48,670 nt of DNA, taken from the IMG/VR virus record IMGVR_UViG_3300027784_000001, positions 1-48,670 of that record; one strand, written 5' to 3'. Each line of letters starts with the position of its first letter. Positions within the stretch are counted from its first letter, which is position 1. The stretch is from a virus. Positions 2,103-48,670 of the stretch are shown piece after piece. Both the position numbers and the translations under genes were made by a program. A model generated the notes under the pieces. That model did no database searches. It saw only the letters and a program-made list of their open reading frames with translations, and was not told where the DNA came from.

Positions 2103-2109
2103 CTATAAT

Positions 2110-2154
2110 CCCCGCGGGTTAAGTGCACTCCAATCGGAGCACGGGCCCGCGGGG
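2110..2154 (+). terminator. Rho-independent terminator closing the early operon
   Basis: 9-bp outer stem CCCCGCGGG/CCCGCGGGG (2110-2118/2146-2154). An inner stem GTGC..CTCC/GGAGCAC has loop AATC. Followed by CCACTTTTA. Confidence 0.6.
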
Positions 2155-2161
2155 CCACTTT

Positions 2162-2178
2162 TACGAAACTTTACATTC
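2162..2178 (+). promoter_or_regulatory. 17-nt box TACGAAACTTTACATTC, identical to 46722-46738 (the box just upstream of sigma54-type site S1)
   Basis: Exact 17/17 identity between two intergenic hubs about 4 kb apart on the circle. A shorter version, AACTTTACATTC, is at 46838-46849. Confidence 0.5.
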
Positions 2179-2240
2179 TCGAATCCACCATGCACAAACC
2201 ATGCCAGCCAGTGGGATTTTCTGAAAATAATCTGAGCGGT

Positions 2241-2277
2241 GTTTCACCTCTGAAACGAGGTGTTTCAACAGTGAAAC
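2241..2277. promoter_or_regulatory. Two adjacent 16-bp palindromes GTTTCA-N4-TGAAAC (2241-2256 and 2262-2277), operator-like
   Basis: Both have perfect 6-bp half-sites. Each is preceded by GGT, and their start-to-start spacing is 21 bp (two helical turns). Confidence 0.5.
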
Positions 2278-2466
2278 AACAGTGGGGGGCAAGTATCGTG
2301 CCAAGCAAAAATTTTTTATATTCCGCCTTCCAATTCTGCCATAATCCACCGCCCACTTTCAGACTATCCGCCCTTATGACAAGCCGCCCTACAGAGCGCA
2401 CCTCCTGGACCGTAGGAGCCGAAGATAATTTTTCCGCAAGGGGGGTGCACCCTTTCAGCCAAAACG

Positions 2467-2484
2467 CCGTCACAGCCCGTCACA
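2467..2484. repeat. Two CCGTCACA octamers 10 bp apart; outlying members of the GTGACGG heptamer family
   Basis: CCGTCACA at 2467-2474 and 2477-2484. Confidence 0.6.
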
Positions 2485-2527
2485 ACCGCCCCCCTTCAGA
2501 GCGGCAAAATTTCGGAAGGATAGGGCT

Positions 2528-2542
2528 GTTACAATTTGTAAC
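2528..2542. promoter_or_regulatory. Perfect 15-bp palindrome GTTACAA-T-TTGTAAC, built from the same TTGTAAC half-site that is reiterated at 46547-46945
   Basis: Read directly. The half-site recurs at least 8 times in the 46.5 kb hub. Confidence 0.5.
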
Positions 2543-3109
2543 GGCGGAAGGTCGGCGCTTAAAGGCTTGCTATACTAGGCGGATGGGACCCCAAGAAGGG
2601 GTCCCCCTGTTTAGAGGCCGGAGCTGCCTCCACGAGAGATTTACCCAGAATCGCAACACACACCTACCGCGGGGGCGTAGCGCGGGTACACGCGGGGGCG
2701 CACGCACGTAGGCAGGCCGAGATACTGCGGAGAGGACCCTGAGAGTAGCAGCAGGGCCTATCAGAGGCATTCAGCAGGCAGGGGGCATGCCAGCACACCC
2801 GCAGCAGGGAAGAACGGCACAGGCCGCCCTACAGACAAGCAACATTACACCTACTCCGCCATCGGACGCGCCCGCCCGCGCATAGAGCCGCCGCAGCTGG
2901 CACACTTACTCCGCCCTCTGACCCGGCGGTCCTGCCATAGCGCAGTGCCTCTAGGGAGGCGCAGAGCTTCAGAAGGTCAGCAGGCCCCTGTCACAGCGCC
3001 CGCCGGCCCGATAGCGTGGCGCCAAGCGCAGCGCAAGAGCAGGCCACGCCTAGAGCTTAGGGCAGCGCACGGAGAGGCCGCACGGAGGGGCAGCAGGCCC
3101 GCAGGCCCG

Positions 3110-3475
3110 CCCTGTGACGGCTGTGACGGAGTGTGACGGCAATGTGACGGCCCCCCTGTCACAGCGGCTCGCCCGCCTATAGCCCCGTTTAACGCATCCG
3201 TGCACGGGCAGTGTGACGCTGTGACGGCTCTGCCCTATTACTATATATATAAAACATGCTTTTTTCTTAAATTCTTTCCATTTTCAAAATTCTACCAATA
3301 TAAGAGAGGGGTGTCACAAACGTACAAAAAATTTCTAATCTGGCGCTATTACTGGATTTCCGCTGTGACACCCACCCCGTCACAGTGCCGTCACAGGCCG
3401 TCACAGCCGTCACAAATTGCAGATTCCCTAATGATCTCGGGCACTTAACCCCGTCACAGCCCCCGTCACGGCCAA
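3110..3475. repeat. Iteron module A: arrays of TGTGACGG / CCGTCACA at helical spacing flanking an AT-rich (TA)n core (3233-3310); homologous to module B at 25538-25895
   Basis: Forward octamers at 3113, 3122, 3132, 3143, 3212 and 3220. Inverted copies at 3157, 3312, 3377, 3388, 3398, 3407, 3451 and 3463. Long blocks are identical to module B, e.g. GGCGGCTCGCCCGCCTATAGCC, CCCTATTACTATATATAT, ATGCTTTTTTCTTAAATTCT and GGGGTGTCACAAA. Confidence 0.85.
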
Positions 3476-3726
3476 AGACCACAAGGCTTGCTAGCGCGCT
3501 CGCAGAGGGAGGCTTATCACAAACCTGAGTCCAGCGGGCTGTTATCCCTAATACCTTTCGGCTGTGTGTCGACAAAAGGAGGTGGCCTAGCGGGCTATAT
3601 GGGACCCACGAGGTGCGTAGAGAGTGATAAGAGCCCCTGAGCTCCTCCTACCCCTCCTTGCGTAGATTTCGTTACTGTGTAGGTTTGACCTTGGATGGCC
3701 CCACTTTACTGACCAGAGAGGCTTAT

Positions 3727-4566
3727 ATGCAATTCGACCCCGAGGCAGCAAAACAACAGATACGCGACCTCCATAAGAGGGGGCTCAGCGTCAAGCAAAT
3801 AGCAGAGAAGACGGAGCTACACCACACCGCGGTGAGTCGGGAGCTATACGGCCACGACCACTACCTCATCCAACGGCGGATGGTCAAGCTGCTCGACAAG
3901 GGCTATAGCCGCAGGGAGATAGCCAACAAGCTCAACGTCGAATATGAGTTCGTCCTGACAGTGCTCTCGCGGGCAGGCCGCTCTGGTAGCGAAGATCGGC
4001 GCATGCTCTCCCCCGGCGACCGAGAAGACGCGCTAAAAATGTACATGAACGGGGCCACCGCGCACGAAGTGGGAGAGAAGTACGACCTCGCCGCACAGAC
4101 CGTCTGGAACCTCGCCTCTAAACACGGCGCCCAGAAGTCTGGGAATGAGGACTGGGAGAAAGACGCCATCGCGTACCGCGTACTTGTCAAGCGCCAGCGC
4201 ATGACCACAGCGCTACAGGGGCTATCGATGGGCCGGAGCACGGCGGTCTGGTACCGCTTCAAGGACCCCATCACCAACCCGGAGTTCTACCGCAAGCATG
4301 GCATCACCTATGACGATATTAAACACCGCTATCGCTTCAAGGGCACCACGGCAGAGATTAGCCGCTATTGGAAGGTCTACGTGGATGTGAACGAGAACGG
4401 CATGTCCTATACGGACGCGCAAGAGAAGTACGCCATCACCCGCTACAAGGTGCGGGATTCGGCCCAGCTGGGCTCAGTCAACGCCTTCGTGGCCTGCTGG
4501 GAGCTCGCCCTCCGACGGGGCCAGCTGCCTATTGGCGATAATCATACGTCTGATGGAGGCCAGTAA
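3727..4566 (+). CDS. DNA-binding protein with 4-5 tandem helix-turn-helix modules (terS/resolvase-type HTH repeats), first gene of the packaging cluster
   Basis: Repeated segments: RGLSVKQIAEKTELHHTAVSREL, KGYSRREIANKLNVEYEFVLTVL, NGATAHEVGEKYDLAAQTVWNLA and GLSMGRSTAVWYRF. ATG at 3727 with an AGAGAGG box. The listed ORF start 3658 is a TTG with no RBS. Confidence 0.7.
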   Translation: MQFDPEAAKQQIRDLHKRGLSVKQIAEKTELHHTAVSRELYGHDHYLIQRRMVKLLDKGYSRREIANKLNVEYEFVLTVLSRAGRSGSEDRRMLSPGDREDALKMYMNGATAHEVGEKYDLAAQTVWNLASKHGAQKSGNEDWEKDAIAYRVLVKRQRMTTALQGLSMGRSTAVWYRFKDPITNPEFYRKHGITYDDIKHRYRFKGTTAEISRYWKVYVDVNENGMSYTDAQEKYAITRYKVRDSAQLGSVNAFVACWELALRRGQLPIGDNHTSDGGQ

Positions 4567-5075
4567 TGGGAGAATTTGGGCCATCTGACTGGGACAAGGC
4601 CATCGAGGTCGCCAAGTACCGTGCTTTCGGCTACACGCAGAGGGAGGTAGCAGCCAAGGTGGGCGTAAGTGCCCCGACTATCTCGCGCTGGGAGAATAGC
4701 AGCTGGTGGGGGCAGGCCATCGAGGAGGCGAAGACGGGCGAAATGCGGGAGCTCGCAGGCCGGGCGCTCAATACCGTCCGCGAGGCCATCGAAGAGGGCG
4801 ACGTGACCACCGCCCGCTGGTACCTAGAGCGTACAGAGCCGCGCCTCTCTAAGAGTGGGAGCGGGGGAGGCAGCAGCCACAATGTGCAGGTCAACGTCGG
4901 CGTGGCCGGCGGGGGCAATGCGACCACGGAGGTTATCGAAGACGCCAACGGCAACACCCGCCGTATCGAAGATATGTCCGAAGAGGAGCTACGGGAGCTC
5001 GCCGGCGAGGACACTAAGGGCGAGATTATCGACCTCCAATTCGAGGAAATGAAGGGGGAGCTCAATGCCGATTAG
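4566..5075 (+). CDS. terS: Small terminase subunit-like HTH protein
   Basis: N-terminal HTH (GYTQREVAAKVGVSAPTISRWE), 169 aa, GGAGG RBS. Lies directly upstream of terL and overlaps it. Confidence 0.6.
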   Translation: MGEFGPSDWDKAIEVAKYRAFGYTQREVAAKVGVSAPTISRWENSSWWGQAIEEAKTGEMRELAGRALNTVREAIEEGDVTTARWYLERTEPRLSKSGSGGGSSHNVQVNVGVAGGGNATTEVIEDANGNTRRIEDMSEEELRELAGEDTKGEIIDLQFEEMKGELNAD

Positions 5076-11598: not shown

Positions 11599-11964
11599 AT
11601 GGGCCAGTCTATAGGCGAGCTTTTCGAGACTCTAGTCCCACAGGCTAGGGAGCTATCAGAAGAGCAACAAGAGGTGTTCCTCAATCTTGCAGCAGCGCAG
11701 ATTGACAAGTCCATCTTCGGGGGAGTCTATAGGCAGGCCCTTTGCTACCTTGCTGGCCACTTCATGATTATGTCCCGCAAACGTGATGGCGTGGGCGGGG
11801 CGCTGACCGGGCGACGGGCTGGGGAGGTCTCGGAGAATTACGGCGACCCCATGGTAGTTGGACAAGGAACGCTGTCTTCCACTTCCTATGGTATCATGTA
11901 TCGACAGCTCCAGCGCAGCAGAGTGGGCACGATGGCTACGGTGTCCGGGGGCAAGCATCGATGA
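11599..11964 (+). CDS. Head-tail connector / head completion protein (gp6 / DUF4054-like)
   Basis: 121 aa. Motif FGGVYRQALCYLAGHFMIM resembles head-tail connector families. Position is consistent. Confidence 0.5.
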   Translation: MGQSIGELFETLVPQARELSEEQQEVFLNLAAAQIDKSIFGGVYRQALCYLAGHFMIMSRKRDGVGGALTGRRAGEVSENYGDPMVVGQGTLSSTSYGIMYRQLQRSRVGTMATVSGGKHR

Positions 11965-25215: not shown

Positions 25216-25563
25216 GTGGAACAGGCCATTATAACCATAGCCTCAAGCGCAGGAGGAGGGGCGGCCATCATCGGCCTAGTGCTCTACCTGCTGGTCAAGC
25301 GGATGAAGCACCGGGAAGACCATAAGCTAGAGCTAGAGCGCCTCCGCGCAGATAGCGAAGAGGGCCTCTACCACCGCCTTCGGGCCGACGTAGAGCGCTC
25401 CCATGATGCGCTGGGCAGGCAGCGCGAATATATCCAAGTGTTGGAGGCCCGCCTACGGCAGTGTTCCCTCTGCGATGATTGCCGCGAGCGCACCGACCTG
25501 CCCCCAGCGCAAGCGCCACCCGGCGAGGGCGTTGACGACTGTGACAGCTGTGACGGGGTGTGA
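25216..25563 (+). CDS. Membrane-anchored lysis protein (holin or i-spanin-like): N-terminal TM helix, coiled coil and a Cys-rich tail
   Basis: GTG start with an AAGGAG RBS. TM segment IITIASSAGGGAAIIGLVLYLLV. The last 7 codons (CDSCDGV) are encoded by the first iterons of module B. Confidence 0.6.
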   Translation: MEQAIITIASSAGGGAAIIGLVLYLLVKRMKHREDHKLELERLRADSEEGLYHRLRADVERSHDALGRQREYIQVLEARLRQCSLCDDCRERTDLPPAQAPPGEGVDDCDSCDGV

Positions 25564-25895
25564 CGGCAATGTGACGCGGGGGGTGTCACGGCGGCTCGCC
25601 CGCCTATAGCCTCGGCTAAGCGATCTGACCGGGCTAGATGTGACGGCGTGACGGGGTGGCCCTATTACTATATATATATAATATGCTTTTTTCTTAAATT
25701 CTGTACAGATTGAAATTCCTACTAACTTATAGAAGGGGTGTCACAAATGGGGGAACAAAGCCGAGATCCGAGGCTATAGCTGGCCGATACGGTGTGACGG
25801 CCCCCCTGTCACAAGGGTGTCACAAGGCCCGGTAGCCGTCACAAAACGCCGATTCCTCAACGATTCCAGGCACTTAGCCCCGTCACAAGCCCCCC
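25538..25895. repeat. Iteron module B: second copy of the GTGACGG/CCGTCAC + (TA)n core module (core 25660-25735)
   Basis: Forward copies at 25540, 25549, 25559, 25570 (spacing 9/10/11, as in A), 25639, 25648 and 25793. Inverted copies at 25584, 25739, 25807, 25818, 25836 and 25880. Confidence 0.85.
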
Positions 25896-41231: not shown

Positions 41232-42569
41232 ATGATTATCAGAGAGCCGAAAGATGAGTTCGTAGGCAACCCCGGAGCCACTCGGGATGTGCCCGTTGGC
41301 GAGTACATGTCATTCGTGCGGGACGCCTATCAAGGCACGGATATTGACGACCTACCGTGCGATTATGTCCTCCGCTCTGTCCGTTCCAACTACAAGTCCT
41401 ACGGCGGGTACCAGTGGCCGATGGAAGTCGGCGCCGTAGCAGAGGCAGACTTCCTCAATATCGGGACGGCCTGTGGCGGCGGGCTGCATGGCTGGTGGTG
41501 GGGCGCCGGGCATACTCACGCGCTCCTCAGCGCTCCCGCCCGGTGGATGGTATTGAAGGTGCCCCGACGTGAGATTATCGACCTGCGCGGCAAGGTCAAA
41601 TTCCCCCGTGCAAAGATTGTCCAGACCGGCACCTATGCCAAGTCCCTTGCCTTCCTCAAGCGTAAGCTGGTCAAGTTTGGCTCCAGCCGCATTAAGGATT
41701 ATATTCGGGCTTGGGGCAGTGTCTACGCCGACGGTCCCGAAGACAGTAAGACGGGGCGTATCATCCCCCGCGTTGAGCTAGGCAGGTACGAAGCCCATGC
41801 CGACCAGAGGCGGCGGCAGGTCGTCGAGGGCCGGGGGCTCTGCTCTGCGGTCGTAGGCGAGTACTGCGTTGCCGACTTGAAGGACGATGGCCGCGCCATC
41901 ATAGGCGATAATAGCGAAGCGTGCGTAGGCCACGGCGGGAGGGCTATCGCCGGCTATTACTCCAAAGTGCATATCGGCAATAATAGTGAGGCTATCGTGG
42001 GCAGCCGCTCCTATGTCAACGGCCGTAAGAAGTACCGCCGCTGCAAAGGCCCCGCCAACATCGTCGCCGGTGCGGAGTCTACGGTGGACGTTCCACTGGC
42101 GCGGCGCAGCTCCATTATCGCGGAGCGTGGTTCCCTCGTGCGGGCAGGGGTTAACGCGAAGATTATTGTAGAAGAAAACTCGGCAGTCCATTTCACCGGC
42201 GGCGAAGACCCGGACCACCCCTCGCCGTTGACGCCTCCGCCCCAAGGTACGCTCTTGGCCGAGGCCCCCGTTGCCTTCCGGTTTGATGGGCCGCTCCCGC
42301 CTGACGTAGTTGTCTCCTCGCCGGGCGTGCCTGCTGCCCATTTATGCCCGAACCTTGCGGACGAGCTTCCACAGGGCTTCTGGTACGTTATCGACCGAGG
42401 CGATAGCAACATGGCCGCAAACTTTGGGCGAGACTGCGGCATGGCCTCGCACTGCATAGAGCTCGACGGCGACTTCCGCCTATTGCGCTTCGATGGCCAA
42501 GGCTTCGATGCCAGCCGCTTCGGAGCGGATGAAATTCTTGACCACGTGGAGTGGGGAGGCAACCAATGA
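41232..42569 (+). CDS. Hypothetical 445-aa protein: N-terminal YGGYQWP...CGGGLHGWW domain plus a central ~18-20-residue beta-helix-like repeat region
   Basis: The repeat pattern in IIGDNSEACVGHGGRAIAGYYSKVHIGNNSEAIVGSRSYV...NIVAGAESTV...SIIAERGSLVRAGVNAKIIVEENSAV was read by eye. Confidence 0.65.
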   Translation: MIIREPKDEFVGNPGATRDVPVGEYMSFVRDAYQGTDIDDLPCDYVLRSVRSNYKSYGGYQWPMEVGAVAEADFLNIGTACGGGLHGWWWGAGHTHALLSAPARWMVLKVPRREIIDLRGKVKFPRAKIVQTGTYAKSLAFLKRKLVKFGSSRIKDYIRAWGSVYADGPEDSKTGRIIPRVELGRYEAHADQRRRQVVEGRGLCSAVVGEYCVADLKDDGRAIIGDNSEACVGHGGRAIAGYYSKVHIGNNSEAIVGSRSYVNGRKKYRRCKGPANIVAGAESTVDVPLARRSSIIAERGSLVRAGVNAKIIVEENSAVHFTGGEDPDHPSPLTPPPQGTLLAEAPVAFRFDGPLPPDVVVSSPGVPAAHLCPNLADELPQGFWYVIDRGDSNMAANFGRDCGMASHCIELDGDFRLLRFDGQGFDASRFGADEILDHVEWGGNQ

Positions 42570-43159
42570 ATAACAGCAAATACGATAAATGGATTGACTA
42601 CAATGACTTATGGGTGCGAGGGGCTTGCGAGAAGGGGAGGGTACTATTTGATAAGCTGTTTGGCCGCCACGGCAGGCTGCACGCGGGAGATAGCGGACTG
42701 GCCGGGCTATTGCTGCACGAAGACGCAAGGCAGCATATCGGATGGCTAGTCGATCAAGGTCTGTTGCGGGTAGACATGGAATGGTGGGACCTAAGCGGTA
42801 TGGACCTCAGATACCTTCAGCTTAGCGATGCGTATGTAAGGGCCTGTAATTTCGCGGGGGCGAGCCTCTTAGATAGCTCGATAGCTGGGCGTGGCCTTTT
42901 TGTATGCTGCGGCTTCGCGGGGGCAGACCTCCGGTTTTCGCGGCTGAGTTACTCCCAGTTTACGCGCTGCAACTTTGAAGGGGCAGACTTGGGCGGTACG
43001 AAGCTTAGGAATTGCAATATTGCCAGCTCATCGCTCCGCAACGCACGAGGACTAAATACGGCGTATTTTCACGACTGCACGATGCTTGAAGAGCAGCGCC
43101 GCACCCTGGTAGATGCAGGAGCCAATGTTTATAATCCCGTCATCGTAACAGGAGAGTAA
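42566..43159 (+). CDS. Pentapeptide-repeat protein (paralog 1)
   Basis: Repeats run from LSGMDLRYLQLSDAYVRACNFAGASLLDSSIAG through FAGADLRFSRLSYSQFTRCNFEGADLGGTKLRNCNI. ATG 42566 with a GGGGAGG RBS and ATGA overlap. Confidence 0.8.
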   Translation: MNNSKYDKWIDYNDLWVRGACEKGRVLFDKLFGRHGRLHAGDSGLAGLLLHEDARQHIGWLVDQGLLRVDMEWWDLSGMDLRYLQLSDAYVRACNFAGASLLDSSIAGRGLFVCCGFAGADLRFSRLSYSQFTRCNFEGADLGGTKLRNCNIASSSLRNARGLNTAYFHDCTMLEEQRRTLVDAGANVYNPVIVTGE

Positions 43160-43161
43160 CC

Positions 43162-43377
43162 ATGAGAGAAGGTACCCAAGAGGCACTATTCCTATGCGGC
43201 GCATGCGGCTATGAGGAATGGGTGACTTTCGTAGGAGAGCGGAGCAAGCCCCCGGCGGCCAAGAAGCTATCCGCTAACCCCCCGGTTATCGCAGAAGAGT
43301 GCTGCCCCTCTTGCGGGGCGGCAGTAGAGTTCCGATTCGACCAACTCCAACAATACAAATGGGAAGAAAATGAGTGA
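43162..43377 (+). CDS. Small zinc-ribbon protein (CGACG...CPSCG)
   Basis: 71 aa with two CxxC pairs and an AGGAGA RBS. Confidence 0.6.
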   Translation: MREGTQEALFLCGACGYEEWVTFVGERSKPPAAKKLSANPPVIAEECCPSCGAAVEFRFDQLQQYKWEENE

Positions 43378-43987
43378 AGATAAATACCTGACATATAATG
43401 AGCTCATGCGCAGCTACCGCGCCTGTGATGAGGCATTGGATACCTTCGCCAAAGTGCTAGGCCGCGATGGCCACCTGTCGCTGGGGAAGTCCGGCCTTAT
43501 CGGCTTGCTGATGCACCCCGAAGGGCGCCAGCATATCGGCTGGCTACTGTGGAGCACTCCGGCTAACTGGCATTTAGATATGCTGGACCTCAGCGGTGTG
43601 CAGCTGCCCCAGCTGTGTTTTAGGCAGGAGCACGTCACTTCTTGCAAGTTTGTCGGCACCGGGCTGCACAGGGCATGCTTTCGCCGGTCCTATATCGACG
43701 ACTGCAACTTCTCCGGGGCCTCGCTACAGTATGCCAACTTCCGATTCAGCCATATCAGCGATACCTCTTTCGCCAGCGCAGACCTACGTGCTGCGTACCT
43801 CTCCGAGGCCGACCTGTCCTGCTGCCATTTCTATAAGGCAGACCTACGGGGGGCTACCTTCCGACAAGCCAGCCTGATGGGCTGCTTCTTCGGGGACGCT
43901 AAACTCGAAGGGGCAGACTTCCGAGAGGCCGCCGGGCTCGACCCCGACCAGCGGGAGTACTTGGCGCAGATGGGGGCCACCGTATGA
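43370..43987 (+). CDS. Pentapeptide-repeat protein (paralog 2)
   Basis: The N-terminal domain aligns with paralog 1: LGKSGLIGLLMHPEGRQHIGWLL vs AGDSGLAGLLLHEDARQHIGWLV. Repeats include FSGASLQYANFRFSHISDTSFASADLRAAYLSEADLSCCHFYKADLRGATF. Confidence 0.8.
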   Translation: MSEDKYLTYNELMRSYRACDEALDTFAKVLGRDGHLSLGKSGLIGLLMHPEGRQHIGWLLWSTPANWHLDMLDLSGVQLPQLCFRQEHVTSCKFVGTGLHRACFRRSYIDDCNFSGASLQYANFRFSHISDTSFASADLRAAYLSEADLSCCHFYKADLRGATFRQASLMGCFFGDAKLEGADFREAAGLDPDQREYLAQMGATV

Positions 43988-45673: not shown

Positions 45674-46176
45674 TGAGTGCACAGCTACAGATTAACATCG
45701 AAGAGGAGTCTAGCTTCCCGCTTACGGTGCCCTTTGGAGGCAAGGAAGTTGGTGCGGTCTGGGGCACGTTTAGCCATCCCTTCGGGGACCTGCCCCGCTT
45801 CACGGCCCGCGGCGGCCCGGAGCATAAGCCCGTGGCCCCGCTGATTGACGTGATGCCCTCGCCCATCGTCGTTATCCCAGAGCTCCGCGCGAAGCCCCAA
45901 CAGGCCGGCCTCATCAAGCGCTACATGCGCCTACTCCACCGCTCAGACCAGCCTTCGGTGCTGGCTATCTGGGGAGACTTCTGGACCCCTGCAATCATGG
46001 AGAAAGCGGCCCTCTACTCCTACGGCAATAGCGTGTTCCGGGTGGAGGAGGCCACGTGGCAGTTTGGCCGCGTATACGAGACTAGCAGAGTGGTGTACTG
46101 CTACAACGGGCTCGAAGACCCGCACCGCACGCGGCGCCTGAGTAACGGGGTGTCTTTCCGTGTTTCTCACCTGTAA
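45673..46176 (+). CDS. Hypothetical protein (167 aa), last gene before the regulatory hub
   Basis: ORF with ATGA-type coupling to the resolvase gene. Confidence 0.6.
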   Translation: MSAQLQINIEEESSFPLTVPFGGKEVGAVWGTFSHPFGDLPRFTARGGPEHKPVAPLIDVMPSPIVVIPELRAKPQQAGLIKRYMRLLHRSDQPSVLAIWGDFWTPAIMEKAALYSYGNSVFRVEEATWQFGRVYETSRVVYCYNGLEDPHRTRRLSNGVSFRVSHL

Positions 46177-46183
46177 TAGGGTG

Positions 46184-46214
46184 CCCCCATAAAAGGGGGG
46201 AGGGGGAGGGGGGG
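46184..46214 (+). other. C5/G5 hairpin (46184-46199) running into a G6-A-G5-A-G7 tract (46195-46214)
   Basis: Sequence GCCCCCATAAAAGGGGGGAGGGGGAGGGGGGG immediately after the stop codon of the last gene. Confidence 0.5.
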
Positions 46215-46546
46215 TACGCCCCGGCGCCGAGGCAGTTGCCAAAGTGTCCGGGGCTTTTCTGCGCCTGCTTTCTGCGGGCGCTCCGGAGCTCGCCGGGAAA
46301 CACCTCGGAGCTTCGCCGGGAAGAGGGCGGAGTAAGTCTGTAGGAAAGGCAGAGGGGCCGCCGGAGTTACTCGCGGAGCTGCTGAGAAAAGGTCCGCGCT
46401 GCCTCCCAAAATAGTCCGGGACTTGCTGTAGAAATACCCCGGAGCTCTCCGAGGCCCCTAGTGGAAAAGGGCAGAGGGTACTTATAAAATTTTTGAAAAA
46501 TCGCCAGAATAATGTGTATAGGGGTTCATAACCTCCAGCCACCCCG

Positions 46547-46720
46547 TTTGTAACTTTTTGTAACTTTTTGTTAAAAATCGTTAAAAATCGTTAAAAATCG
46601 TTAAAAATCGTTAAATTTTGTTAAATTTTGTAACGGAATGTAAAGCTGGTGATTATGTAACTTTTGGTTAATTTTTGTAACTTTTAGTAAAATATTGTAA
46701 AGCTTTGTTAAGTTGGATTT
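46547..46720. repeat. AT-rich array of 10-bp-phased repeats: 2x TTGTAACTTT, 4x GTTAAAAATC, 2x GTTAAATTTT, then looser TGTAAC/TGTAAA/GTTAA units
   Basis: Strict 10-bp register from 46548 to 46640, visible as identical 10-nt columns in the sequence listing. It degenerates toward 46720. Confidence 0.9.
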
Positions 46721-46740
46721 GTACGAAACTTTACATTCGT

Positions 46741-46756
46741 TGGCACGAACCTTGCA
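46741..46756 (+). promoter_or_regulatory. Sigma54-type -24/-12 element S1: TGGCACGaaccTTGCA
   Basis: Exact fit to TGGCACG-N4-TTGCW. Confidence 0.7.
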
Positions 46757-46794
46757 TGCGCGGACTCGCCCGCGTTACATTTCTTTTCACGCGC

Positions 46795-46810
46795 TGGCAC
46801 GGTTCTTGCT
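46795..46810 (+). promoter_or_regulatory. Sigma54-type -24/-12 element S2: TGGCACGgttcTTGCT
   Basis: Exact fit to TGGCACG-N4-TTGCW. Confidence 0.7.
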
Positions 46811-46850
46811 TTCAAAAATTCCGGCCTTCGCAACACAACTTTACATTCGT

Positions 46851-46866
46851 TGGCACGGATGTTGCA
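46851..46866 (+). promoter_or_regulatory. Sigma54-type -24/-12 element S3: TGGCACGgatgTTGCA
   Basis: Exact fit to TGGCACG-N4-TTGCW. Confidence 0.7.
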
Positions 46867-46905
46867 TGGCCGCCCGCCGGGGAAGTTACATTTCTTTTCA
46901 TTCGT

Positions 46906-46921
46906 TGGCACGGGCCTTGCA
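46906..46921 (+). promoter_or_regulatory. Sigma54-type -24/-12 element S4: TGGCACGggccTTGCA
   Basis: Exact fit to TGGCACG-N4-TTGCW. Confidence 0.7.
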
Positions 46922-46993
46922 TGGCTGGACGGGGCCGACTTGTAACATTTTGTACGTCTATGTAAAAGAATGTTGCGAAATTAATTTCTGGGC

Positions 46994-47009
46994 TGGCACG
47001 AACCTTGCA
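46994..47009 (+). promoter_or_regulatory. Sigma54-type -24/-12 element S5: TGGCACGaaccTTGCA
   Basis: Exact fit to TGGCACG-N4-TTGCW. Confidence 0.7.
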
Positions 47010-47060
47010 ATCCTTTATAGGGGGGGCTGAGCACGGCGATATACTTTCTGACTATGGCGC

Positions 47061-47089
47061 TTGACACCTCCTGCCCTATCCCTTACTTT
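47061..47089 (+). promoter_or_regulatory. Early sigma70-type promoter P1: TTGACA-N17-TACTTT
   Basis: Consensus -35 and 17-nt spacer. The conserved leader GGGGTGCGGCAGACGAGAAC(AC)n...AGAAAAGGA follows. Confidence 0.65.
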
Positions 47090-47136
47090 CGGGGTGCGGC
47101 AGACGAGAACACACTGACCAGAGAAAAGGATTACCA

Positions 47137-47574
47137 ATGCTCCGCATCCATCGTACATACCAACTCAACGGAACGCTCGGCGTTGTCTACAGCGTCGACG
47201 GCCAGCGCTGCTCTACAGCGCTCCCTAAAGGCGTGGAAGGGCGCGAAGCCATCGCCGCCTATCTTGGCGCCGACCTTGACCTTGAACCTGCTAGCGCTCC
47301 CGTGGAGGCGCCGCTTGCGATTGCGAGCGCCGGGTTGGCGCTGGCAGCGTTGGGTGCTCCGTTGGCGTTCGTCGCCACGCTGGCCACGCTGGCGTTGGCT
47401 ATTTGGCTGTCGACTAGTGACGCCACTGGTCCGGCCGGTCGCATTAGCGATGCCACCACGGCCATCCTGCCACCTAGTGGCGACGAGTTGGACTATGCCG
47501 CGTGGCGCGAGGGGATTCAGTCCGCGGAAAGCGCAAGGTGGACGCTGGCCAGAATTTCCGAGAAAAGCGCTTGA
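47137..47574 (+). CDS. Early protein with a central Ala/Leu-rich membrane-spanning region
   Basis: 145 aa with an AAAAGGA RBS. Hydrophobic stretch APLAIASAGLALAALGAPLAFVATLATLALAIWL. Its stop codon TGA lies inside the -35 of P2. Confidence 0.65.
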   Translation: MLRIHRTYQLNGTLGVVYSVDGQRCSTALPKGVEGREAIAAYLGADLDLEPASAPVEAPLAIASAGLALAALGAPLAFVATLATLALAIWLSTSDATGPAGRISDATTAILPPSGDELDYAAWREGIQSAESARWTLARISEKSA

Positions 47575-47599
47575 CACCTGCTCCTGCATCCCTTATTTT
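47571..47599 (+). promoter_or_regulatory. Early sigma70-type promoter P2: TTGACA-N17-TATTTT
   Basis: An ~82-nt promoter block (47555-47636) matches P3 (47917-47993) apart from one extra AC repeat in P2; their leaders diverge at the RBS. Confidence 0.65.
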
Positions 47600-47651
47600 C
47601 GGGGTGCGGCAGACGAGAACACACACACACAGACCAGAAAAGGAATGGCCC

Positions 47652-47915
47652 ATGGATACACCGCGACGAGCACGCAAGACCACCGTTCAGCGCCTTGTAA
47701 GGGGGTTGGAGGCAACCTTAGAGTTTGACCCTCAGACCCTCTATATCTACTCCCCCCGTGGCACGGTATTTAGCGCCACCGGAACGTCCACCATCGCCAT
47801 TGGATTTGCTGATGCTTTTGGTTCGTGGCGTCCAGTTGCTTATGGTGAAGCTGTGGACCTTCTAGACCACGGTGTCGAGTCCGCCCCCGCCGACTACCGC
47901 GGCTGGTGGGAATAA
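47652..47915 (+). CDS. Early hypothetical protein (87 aa)
   Basis: ATG 47652 preceded by GAAAAGGAA. The upstream part of listed ORF 47502..47915 covers the promoter and leader and is rejected. Confidence 0.6.
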   Translation: MDTPRRARKTTVQRLVRGLEATLEFDPQTLYIYSPRGTVFSATGTSTIAIGFADAFGSWRPVAYGEAVDLLDHGVESAPADYRGWWE

Positions 47916-47932
47916 GTTTCCGAGAAAAGCGC

Positions 47933-47961
47933 TTGACACCTGCTCCTGCATCCCTTATTTT
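47933..47961 (+). promoter_or_regulatory. Early sigma70-type promoter P3: TTGACA-N17-TATTTT
   Basis: Same promoter block as P2 (differs only by one fewer AC repeat); the leader diverges at the RBS. Confidence 0.65.
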
Positions 47962-48013
47962 CGGGGTGCGGCAGACGAGAACACACACACTGACCAGAGA
48001 AAAGGATAGCACA

Positions 48014-48214
48014 ATGAACGCCCCACTGTTTGACACCTCGACGGTAATTCTTATCAAAGCGGGGAAGGCTGCGATTCGGGCAGGACATACGCTGGATGAT
48101 TTCCTCGACGGCTACTTGCGCCATAGCGCTGAGCCCGAGCTTGACGCACGCCGCGTCAAGGGGGCGCGATTTGAGTTGGGCGTTTTTGAGCGCTGTGCAA
48201 ATAATCTCAAATAA
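48014..48214 (+). CDS. Early hypothetical protein (66 aa)
   Basis: ATG 48014 preceded by GAGAAAAGGA. Confidence 0.6.
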   Translation: MNAPLFDTSTVILIKAGKAAIRAGHTLDDFLDGYLRHSAEPELDARRVKGARFELGVFERCANNLK

Positions 48215-48218
48215 GCGC

Positions 48219-48247
48219 TTGACAAGGGGCTCGCACCCCGCTATTGT
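48219..48247 (+). promoter_or_regulatory. Early sigma70-type promoter P4: TTGACA-N17-TATTGT
   Basis: Shares AAGCGCTTGACA with P1-P3 but has a different spacer (containing a GGGG/CCCC inverted repeat) and a different leader. Confidence 0.55.
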
Positions 48248-48309
48248 CCCCCTCCCGGCGGAAATGGTTCCCTCGGGGCAAAATTGAAACTCTAGAAAAG
48301 GAATGACCA

Positions 48310-48670
48310 ATGGAATACACCACCGAGAAATCGATTCTCCACCACTCTCGCGACGGCTACAGCGCGCTAGAAGCCACCCTCTTCAACGCTCAACTTTCCA
48401 CGGTCCAGAGGAGCCAGCGCATTGGCGACCGGATTGGCCGGTTCTCAGCACTCCACGGCGCCGGTAGCAGGCTTCGTGCTGGACGCTATGCCGCCGGGCT
48501 GGCGCGCAAAGCGGGTGATGCTTGCCTCGCTAATGCAGCGCGCAAAGCGGCACTTGCCACCTGCGACGCGCTGCAAGTAGCGCTTGGGTTGACTGATATC
48601 AGCGGCATCGATGGCGCCACGACTTGCTACGGCGAATTGGCGCCGGGCGACGTGTTGCAACGCACGGATG
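48310..48670 (+). CDS. 5' part of the early hypothetical protein gene that continues across the junction to base 326
   Basis: ATG 48310 preceded by GAAAAGGAA. The frame is open to the window end, which is why it is absent from the ORF track (no stop in the window). Confidence 0.7.
   Translation, partial: MEYTTEKSILHHSRDGYSALEATLFNAQLSTVQRSQRIGDRIGRFSALHGAGSRLRAGRYAAGLARKAGDACLANAARKAALATCDALQVALGLTDISGIDGATTCYGELAPGDVLQRTD
48572..48670. repeat. Terminal direct repeat, the partner of bases 1-99
   Basis: 99/99 identity. Confidence 0.95.

Follow-up and report, generated by a model that had tools for sequence, protein, structure and literature searches.

Promoters recognized by sigma-54 (RpoN) constitute the one bacterial class that is unable to fire without an ATP-driven activator, which is normally dedicated to the promoter and works from an enhancer of its own; the consensus of these promoters was reportedly compiled by Barrios et al. 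in 1999. In bacteriophage T7, the host RNA polymerase starts early transcription from tandem promoters, A1, A2 and A3, at the leading end of the genome. Here, we describe five tandem consensus sigma-54-type (–24/–12) sites that precede the early genes of a phage genome, the IMG/VR virus record IMGVR_UViG_3300027784_000001, which was analyzed over its full length of 48,670 nucleotides (hereafter, the window). These sites had been pointed out in a preliminary description made from the sequence without database searches.

The use of host sigma-54 by a phage has a precedent in Pseudomonas aeruginosa phage YuA, for which two later papers (PMC5053324, PMC10914365) attribute host sigma-54-dependent promoters to Ceyssens et al. 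(2008, J Bacteriol 190:1429), and PMC10914365 reports that a sigma-54-like YuA promoter was detected again by ONT-cappable-seq. The YuA GenBank record contains three '–24/–12' promoters of high activity in the late structural module, at 38.4, 40.9 and 47.2 kb, none of which (0/3) matched TGGCAC-N5-TTGC. A phage-borne sigma-54-type regulator in phi1422 and a weak sigma-54-like protein in Pectobacterium phage Q19 have also been noted, and neither is a promoter array. In bacteria, sigma-54 closed complexes are stable and require an activator, with enhancers 80–150 bp upstream; activators without a DNA-binding domain are promiscuous and can work on any closed complex; and extra sigma-54 sites near a promoter might speed the promoter search as an 'antenna' (PMC3844500). 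Approximately 70 sigma-54 sites exist in a Salmonella genome (PMC3844500), and intragenic, non-promoter sigma-54 sites are described in Salmonella, E. coli and Vibrio (PMC3844500, PMC4551910).

The pattern TGGCACG-N4-TTGCW matched the window exactly five times, each time on the + strand, with start-to-start spacings of 54/56/55/88 bp (Table 1). In dinucleotide-preserving shuffles, the mean number of matches was 0.01, and five were reached in none of 100 shuffles. Moreover, Y preceded TGG, R followed CACG and W followed TTGC at all five sites, which yields the extended consensus YTGGCACGR-N3-TTGCW, and the GG and GC dinucleotides stood one helical turn apart within TGGCAC-N5-TTGC at every site. 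We accordingly reproduced the starts, spacers and spacings that the preliminary description had given for five co-oriented exact matches to the RpoN consensus. The relaxed pattern TGGCAC-N5-TTGC added a single match in the window, on the minus strand (2303 to 2289).

We aligned the five sites without gaps from –24 to +40 and compared the invariant columns inside and outside the core. All 11 core columns were invariant, compared with 2 of the other 53 (Fisher P = 1e-10). Except for the AACC spacer common to sites 1 and 5, the N4 spacer and downstream flank were only 21–54% identical in pairwise comparisons among sites. The 16-mer of site 5 equals that of site 1, yet the flanks of the two are unrelated, and site 5 has nothing else in common with the other sites. 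Sites 1–4 form an A-B-A-B series consisting of two copies of a 110-bp double unit, in which a box A or a box B precedes each site, and the TTACAT of box B lies exactly 10 bp further upstream of its site than that of box A. The earlier claim that the core is fixed and the rest varies therefore holds for the core; it does not hold for the surroundings of sites 1–4, whose flanks are paired repeat units that carry conserved boxes upstream. Box A has a third exact copy at 2167–2178, about 110 bp from the additional minus-strand site, and the 16-mer ACGAAACTTTACATTC recurs there (2163–2178); with up to two mismatches, box A had 7 matches, compared with 1.6 expected, and the exact copies numbered 3.

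All five sites are intergenic. They are located in a 960-bp gap (46177–47136), larger than any other clearly non-coding gap, which separates the end of a long rightward block, where the late genes end at 46176, from the first early gene. Site 5 lies 52 bp upstream of a sigma-70 –35 element, and the first early ATG follows it after 128 bp. Upstream of site 1, the 10-bp helical periodicity of A/T tracts reaches its genome maximum at 46547–46721, and this phased AT-rich run is a candidate for intrinsically bent DNA or an enhancer-like binding platform. The phased run, the TTACAT boxes and the additional minus-strand site do not figure in the preliminary description.

We searched the phage for proteins that could activate or read these sites. 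No Pfam match to Sigma54_activat was obtained in any protein of at least 240 amino acids or in the early proteins, and six-frame searches of the phage found no GAFTGA loop, no Walker A of the enhancer-binding-protein type and no RpoN box. The statement in the preliminary description that the phage lacks an AAA+ enhancer-binding protein is in agreement with these empty searches. Two further statements were confirmed: by coordinates and strand, the first sigma-70-type promoter (P1) starts at 47061 and all five sites point into the early genes, and the genome carries sigma-70-type promoters and its own sigma factor, in the form of four promoter cassettes and a 286-amino-acid sigma-70-family protein with weak FliA-like matches. 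Two candidate readers encoded by the phage were considered and rejected. The phage encodes neither a sigma-54 nor an RpoN-box protein. The phage's own sigma factor is ruled out by its sigma-70-family nature and by the spacing of the elements, which are 11 bp apart centre to centre, compared with a spacer of 16–18 bp in –35/–10 promoters; a FliA-like sigma factor is therefore excluded, since the 11-bp spacing is unlike the –35/–10 architecture.

The five elements are very probably bound by host sigma-54, and we favor, with a probability of roughly 0.55, the interpretation that they serve as a tandem cluster of early promoters that needs an activator from the host. For these sites, binding of sigma-54, promoter firing and the origin of the activation are all inferred. 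In the proposed mechanism, the sigma-54 form of the host RNA polymerase would dock on the five sites as stable closed complexes, and the 54–56-bp spacing would leave space for several holoenzymes to sit next to one another. Opening these complexes would take a host AAA+ enhancer-binding protein, because the phage encodes none; this protein might work promiscuously while free in solution, or the phased TGTAA/TTACAT boxes, together with the putatively bent AT-rich DNA, might recruit it. Rightward transcripts from the predicted starts given in Table 1 would then read into the early genes, adding to the output of the sigma-70 promoters. The presence of several perfect sites might maximize occupancy by a scarce sigma factor, offsetting the missing enhancer–activator pair. 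The layout of a tandem early cluster is found in the window, with five co-oriented sites followed by four sigma-70 cassettes.

We scanned 2.9 million IMG/VR contigs for two consensus sites 30–60 bp apart, and this tandem-pair pattern was found in at least 119 contigs, compared with 2 for a base-permuted control. Among the 119 pair-pattern contigs listed, none was related to the window, either in its DNA or in its proteins. At the free positions of 393 unique viral sites, we observed Y before TGG (82%), G at the seventh position (89%), a T-rich spacer and W after TTGC (88%), and these biases are the known preferences of sigma-54. The strict three-site pattern occurred in 63 viral contigs, whereas the genomes of 185,579 prokaryotic species, which amount to 596 Gbp, contained only 10 matching stretches. 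We estimate the per-base enrichment of viruses over bacteria at one to two orders of magnitude, a figure obtained without an exact viral base count. Moreover, eight or nine of the ten prokaryotic stretches are plain tandem repeats with identical units and TTGCG, some of which are clearly coding. Among the loci from GTDB genomes (L127–L135), the triple matches are almost all minisatellites or coding repeats, and strict bacterial matches are not to be read as sigma-54 arrays. Genuine-looking prokaryotic arrays were limited to a contig of a Fibrobacter metagenome-assembled genome (L136) and perhaps a Gracilibacillus locus. The Fibrobacter contig, which may be of viral origin, is 24.9 kb long and has its five sites near one another at one end.

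For a closer comparison, 166 viral loci (L001–L119 and L137–L183), which fall into 91 nucleotide clusters, were fetched. They contained 106 arrays of at least three sites, with W after TTGC at every site in 88 and at least two different spacers in 93. Arrays with at least three co-oriented sites, all of them TTGCW, were present in 78 loci belonging to 48 nucleotide clusters. The GC content of the array-bearing viral loci ranged from 34 to 68%, and no activator or rpoN signature was found in the 1.7 Mb of fetched viral loci. Tandem consensus arrays are thus a recurrent, virus-enriched architecture and are not peculiar to this phage. Searches of 8 million full texts did not turn up any account of phages with tandem sigma-54 arrays. 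Sigma-54 promoters and the dependence of a phage on sigma-54 are already known, and tandem consensus arrays without a phage activator appear undescribed. The novelty claimed earlier is accordingly upheld for the array as a described feature and is narrower in two respects, in that phage sigma-54 promoters were known from YuA and the array recurs across viruses.

The layout of these arrays was compared using crude calls of open reading frames, on which the following orientation counts rest. Among one-directional arrays, the upstream gene was divergent in 30 and co-oriented in 9, which indicates that arrays tend to stand at the starts of transcription units. In a cluster of 21 podovirus loci with an SU10/P22-type portal, the sites are located between divergent genes, with small leftward genes on one side and the lysis/terminase/portal block on the other. 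Another cluster (the L091 cluster) comprises 25 loci, mostly from IMG sample 3300045988, with genomes of 11–12 kb that represent complete phi29-like podoviruses encoding a protein-primed family-B polymerase, a gp16-type packaging ATPase, a connector and a phi29-type capsid protein. In this clade, each terminal inverted repeat contains 2–5 inward-pointing sigma-54 sites (in L091, at 1–280 and 11620–11897), and in contigs that reach the DNA end, the outermost site is ~55–70 bp from it. These genomes also show that the outermost site cannot depend on an enhancer further upstream. Two diverged subclades keep the TGGCACG...TTGC cores and differ in the intervening sequence.

The cultured relatives of this clade are Salmonella phage astrithr, Acinetobacter phage Phanie and Pectobacterium phage DU_PP_III (Astrithrvirus), whose capsid proteins are 57–58% identical to those of the L091 cluster and whose gene order is the same. 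These three phages have no sigma-54 site, and carry 2–3 tandem promoters of the TTGACA/TATAAT type in the same terminal position. The comparison with Astrithrvirus points to a promoter-class swap in a homologous slot, which is the best available evidence for the arrays as early promoters. We also noted that an ACATTTC / TTA(A)CAT box begins 18 nt upstream of TGG both in this clade and in box B of the window; the TTACAT/TTAACAT likeness is lineage-specific or coincidental. A universal upstream box of viral arrays was considered and rejected, being found in 10 of 86 clusters, compared with 7 of 86 in a control region.

Relatives of the phage itself were sought by several routes. With megablast and tblastn against 50,697 phage records, the closest match was PolA at 27% identity, and IMG/VR scans seeded with three window proteins returned no matches. 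Two terminase homologues (57% and 46% identity) lie on contigs that end before the control region and have no sigma-54 site. The 356-amino-acid protein encoded 1.7 kb upstream had no homologue among 5.8 billion proteins, and a metagenome scan for the TTACAT-box/site/TTACAT-box architecture recovered only the phage's own JGI contig and unrelated chance matches. The JGI contig (L194) was the only other copy found; it is a strain variant, 99.6% identical, with the array unchanged, which is uninformative on conservation. The variant differs only in the 46547–46721 phased run, at 46606–46609, by a repeat-type switch. With regard to the host, no prophage relatives or named homologues turned up, and the homologues of an RlpA-like gene were without taxon names.

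Several observations weigh against a tandem promoter cluster. A strong sigma-70 promoter already stands before each early gene, and the need for sigma-54 is not obvious. The control region contained no IHF, NtrC-type or inverted-repeat consensus, and NifA-type signals were not enriched: one TGT-N10-ACA was present, and the phased TGTAA/GTTAA direct repeats, which lie at the usual enhancer distance, are tied to no known activator. None of the searches for relatives described above yielded one that retains the control region. The downstream gene of one-directional viral arrays was co-oriented in 30 of 50 cases and opposed in 20. Finally, the spacing of co-oriented neighbors in the 166 loci, with redundancy within clusters included, peaked at 17–19, 26–28, 46–48 and 54–58 bp, approximately half-integer numbers of helical turns, and 28 loci contained face-to-face composites of the form TGGCAC-N5-TTGC-N3..7-GCAA-N5-GTGCCA that repeat every 43–57 bp (examples in Table 1). 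It seems incompatible with such a composite that both partners fire. The 17–19/26-bp spacings and the face-to-face composites hint at a role in binding only.

Table 1. Positions of the sigma-54-type sites and accompanying features; coordinates refer to the window unless a locus is named.
Feature	Position	Strand	Sequence	Remarks
Phased run of ~18 TGTAAC/GTTAAA boxes	46547–46721	+		10-bp phase; 22–27% GC; 20–190 bp upstream of site 1
Box A	46727–46738	+	AACTTTACATTC	Ends 2 bp before the TGG of site 1
Sigma-54-type site 1	46741–46756	+	cgtTGGCACGAACCTTGCA	Spacer AACC; exact consensus; predicted start ~46767
GC-rich hairpin, then T-rich tract	46758–46775	+		Just 3' of site 1; terminator-like, relevance uncertain
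Box B	46774–46789	+	GTTACATTTCTTTTCA	Before site 2
Sigma-54-type site 2	46795–46810	+	cgcTGGCACGGTTCTTGCT	Spacer GTTC; exact consensus; predicted start ~46821
Box A, copy	46837–46848	+	AACTTTACATTC	Before site 3
Sigma-54-type site 3	46851–46866	+	cgtTGGCACGGATGTTGCA	Spacer GATG; exact consensus; predicted start ~46877
Box B, copy	46885–46900	+	GTTACATTTCTTTTCA	Before site 4
Sigma-54-type site 4	46906–46921	+	cgtTGGCACGGGCCTTGCA	Spacer GGCC; exact consensus; predicted start ~46932
Short phased run TGTAAC, TGTACG, TGTAAA, TGTTGC	46941–46976	+		10-bp steps; between sites 4 and 5
Sigma-54-type site 5	46994–47009	+	ggcTGGCACGAACCTTGCA	Spacer AACC; exact consensus; predicted start ~47020
Early promoter P1	47061–47089	+		TTGACA 47061–47066, N17, TACTTT 47084–47089; sigma-70-type
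First early gene	47137–47574	+		145 amino acids; AAGGA ribosome-binding site; no family match
Sixth, near-consensus sigma-54-type site	2289–2303	-	TGGCACGATACTTGCc / TGGCACGATACTTGC(c)	Far end of early block, faces back into the block
Face-to-face composites in other viral loci (examples)	L137 3661–3779; L073 418–596; L078 55–227; L140 16–160; L168 3436–3575			

Such a role is the core of the strongest alternative, in which the sites bind sigma-54 or its holoenzyme as a trap, decoy or roadblock, without being meant to fire; we consider it possible, though unlikely. In one variant, the five sites on each replicating phage copy would outnumber the ~70 chromosomal sites and drain sigma-54 from the host regulons (stress responses, pili or flagella, RNA repair, nitrogen control). 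In another, parked closed complexes would insulate the early operon by blocking late-gene read-through on a circular or concatemeric genome. As long as no activator acts, closed complexes are stable and remain silent, and the phage has no activator. A Salmonella genome has only ~70 sigma-54 sites (PMC3844500), and perfect consensus favors occupancy. The array lies exactly between the late-gene end (46176) and the early promoters, in a genome with all genes in one direction, and the sixth site faces inward at the other end of the early block. In addition, the early genes have sigma-70 promoters of their own, and the tight spacings and face-to-face loci of other viruses suit binding better than firing.

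However, the promoter-slot equivalence in the Astrithrvirus-like clade favors transcription, one-directional arrays usually begin transcription units, and all five sites here (5/5) stand in the productive direction, an arrangement unnecessary for a pure decoy. A phage that uses the host core polymerase with its own sigma factor would, moreover, lose core enzyme to the parked holoenzymes. The literature searched gave no precedent for a sigma-factor sponge on phage DNA, and we know of no sigma-factor sponge at all. A tandem early promoter cluster and sigma-54 capture are not mutually exclusive. Extended to the other viruses, the same idea would make the arrays a widespread virus-specific device that mainly captures host sigma-54, with transcription secondary or conditional, which we regard as doubtful. 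If it were true, capture would shut down the Psp membrane-stress response, RtcBA RNA repair, pili or flagella (which are phage receptors) and nitrogen control; it would explain the 17–19/26-bp packing, the face-to-face composites and the missing phage activator; and it would represent the first DNA-encoded sigma-factor sponge.

Much less probably, the sites could belong to another protein, such as a phage helix-turn-helix (HTH) protein, a replication initiator or the small terminase, and mark an origin or packaging site, with the likeness to sigma-54 sites being coincidental. The repeat-rich non-coding setting beside a phased array of 22–27% GC is origin-like, conserved TTACAT boxes accompany sites 1–4, the phage encodes multi-HTH and HTH_3/small-terminase-like proteins, and the arrays of the phi29-like clade lie in terminal repeats that are themselves replication origins. 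However, five matches to an independently defined 12-base consensus, together with the Y/R/W positions, are not credible as coincidence; the same core is present in 48 or more unrelated viral lineages, in which the flanks differ and the free positions are sigma-54-like, and the base-permuted pattern gave 2 matches in IMG/VR. As for an iteron-type origin, AT-rich phased DNA is adjacent, yet the replication genes are 9–20 kb away, and no GC-skew switch marking an origin was seen in the genome. Better origin or operator candidates are the inverted arrays of TGTGACGG around an AT-rich core at 3100–3470 and 25555–25830. We find this explanation poorly supported. Also poorly supported, and the least probable, is the view that the sites are functionless, neutral products of a recent local duplication: sites 1–4 do derive from a duplicated 110-bp double unit, but spacers and downstream flanks have diverged to 25–50% identity while the core is 100% identical, the flanks of site 5 are unrelated, and true bacterial tandem repeats differ in having whole units identical and G after TTGC.

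Some further features of the control region were recorded. Its edges (46183–46215 and 47012–47025) contain G-runs with hairpins of the CCCCC-ATAAAA-GGGGG type (CCATAAAAGGGGGG, CCTTTATAGGGGGG). The TGTAAA/TTTACA half-sites are similar to TyrR/PhhR boxes, and this candidate was rejected, as the region has no N6-spaced inverted pair. A structured RNA at the array was likewise rejected (fold z = –1.2, no Rfam family); the only Rfam match was a chance-level one to PsrR1 (E = 0.86), outside the array. At the sixth site, the predicted minus-strand RNA from 2290 to 2100 is unusually stable (z = –2.9, 0/200 shuffles) and has a long GC hairpin at its end and no Rfam match; the sixth site may give rise to a sigma-54-driven antisense or small RNA.

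The two ends of the window share an exact overlap of 99 bp (1–99 and 48572–48670), which shows that the assembly, of 48,571 bp, is circular or circularly permuted. The GC content of this myovirus-like genome is 58%, every gene is on the + strand and no tRNA genes were found in it. The source is a Kulunda soda-lake sediment metagenome (JGI 3300000557, 'SL_8KL_010_SED'), and the same phage is present in Logan SRR490134. Pfam and PHROGs searches identified a T4-type large terminase, a portal and an E217-like myovirus head/baseplate set, as well as a DUF5906 primase-helicase, a PD-(D/E)XK nuclease and a family-A DNA polymerase. The multi-HTH protein is encoded at 3658–4566 and the HTH_3/small-terminase-like protein at 4566–5075. 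Two adjacent pentapeptide-repeat proteins (42551–43159 and 43370–43987) are encoded near the end of the rightward block.

The early region (47057–48310) comprises four near-identical cassettes, starting at 47061, 47571, 47933 and 48219, each before one small open reading frame, and each consisting of GCGCTTGACA, N17, TA(T/C)TTT, a conserved leader that includes a CACACAC run, and AAGGA as ribosome-binding site. None of the small open reading frames had a family match. This arrangement is that of a modular, duplicated gene architecture, as read from the near-identity of the cassettes. Between the early and late genes, a 1.5-kb region (2103–3657) is repeat-dense, including TGTTTCA/TGAAACA inverted repeats at 2238–2278, and is probably mostly non-coding; the open reading frame at 2190–2711 has a GC content at third codon positions of 0.3–0.6, compared with 0.77–0.79 in confident genes, and a low-complexity translation rich in Arg, Pro and Ser. 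A module of ~270 bp is duplicated with 76% identity at 3128–3400 and 25555–25830. It contains arrays of TGTGACGG and the inverse CCGTCACA around an AT-rich core, GCCCTATTACTATATATATA..ATGCTTTTTTCTTAAATTCT, and its copies head the late (3658 onward) and replication (25817 onward) gene blocks. These modules are candidate promoter/operator modules of the phage sigma factor or candidate replication origins.

The recurrence of the arrays in at least 48 nucleotide-distinct viral lineages and their near-absence from prokaryotes point to an unrecognized common phage strategy. Because sigma-54 promoters need an ATPase activator, firing would depend on the state of the host activators, and stacked sites in a phage that encodes no activator would either exploit host activators that are already active, tying infection to host physiology, or serve by binding alone. 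Two questions are raised accordingly, namely whether consensus sigma-54 promoters can be driven in vivo without an enhancer and whether phages manipulate the sigma-54 pool. The array may also provide a simple sequence signature that predicts an rpoN-bearing host for a metagenomic virus.

Compared with known systems, the array has partial counterparts. Titration loci such as E. coli datA, for DnaA, and the incA iterons of plasmid P1, for RepA, resemble it in that clustered sites could lower the free amount of a scarce regulator as copy number rises, an analogy that applies to sigma-54 capture only; unlike it, datA and incA titrate a replication initiator, and their role is experimentally established. 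As with T7 A1/A2/A3 and the terminal promoters of Astrithrvirus, several co-oriented putative promoters are packed into a few hundred bp where the early region begins, whereas those sigma-70 promoters open spontaneously and sigma-54 promoters are locked until an ATPase activator acts. Intragenic sigma-54 sites offer a parallel for a possible interference, roadblock or 'antenna' role (PMC3844500), although they are single, scattered and often degenerate at –23/–11, and the sites described here are clustered, consensus-perfect and intergenic. The –24 GG/–12 GC spacing, the extended consensus and AT-rich or bent DNA upstream are found in canonical pairs such as glnAp2/NtrC, pspA/PspF and nifH/NifA (PMC3844500); in contrast to these, the phage locus has no cognate activator gene, inverted-repeat enhancer or IHF consensus, and five sites occur in series instead of one. 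The most similar case is YuA, likewise a tailed phage without its own enhancer-binding protein, with sigma-54 and sigma-70 promoters and genes on one strand, the use of sigma-54 being a prediction in the present phage. However, YuA has three dispersed, single late promoters, whereas here five tandem perfect-consensus sites head an early operon.

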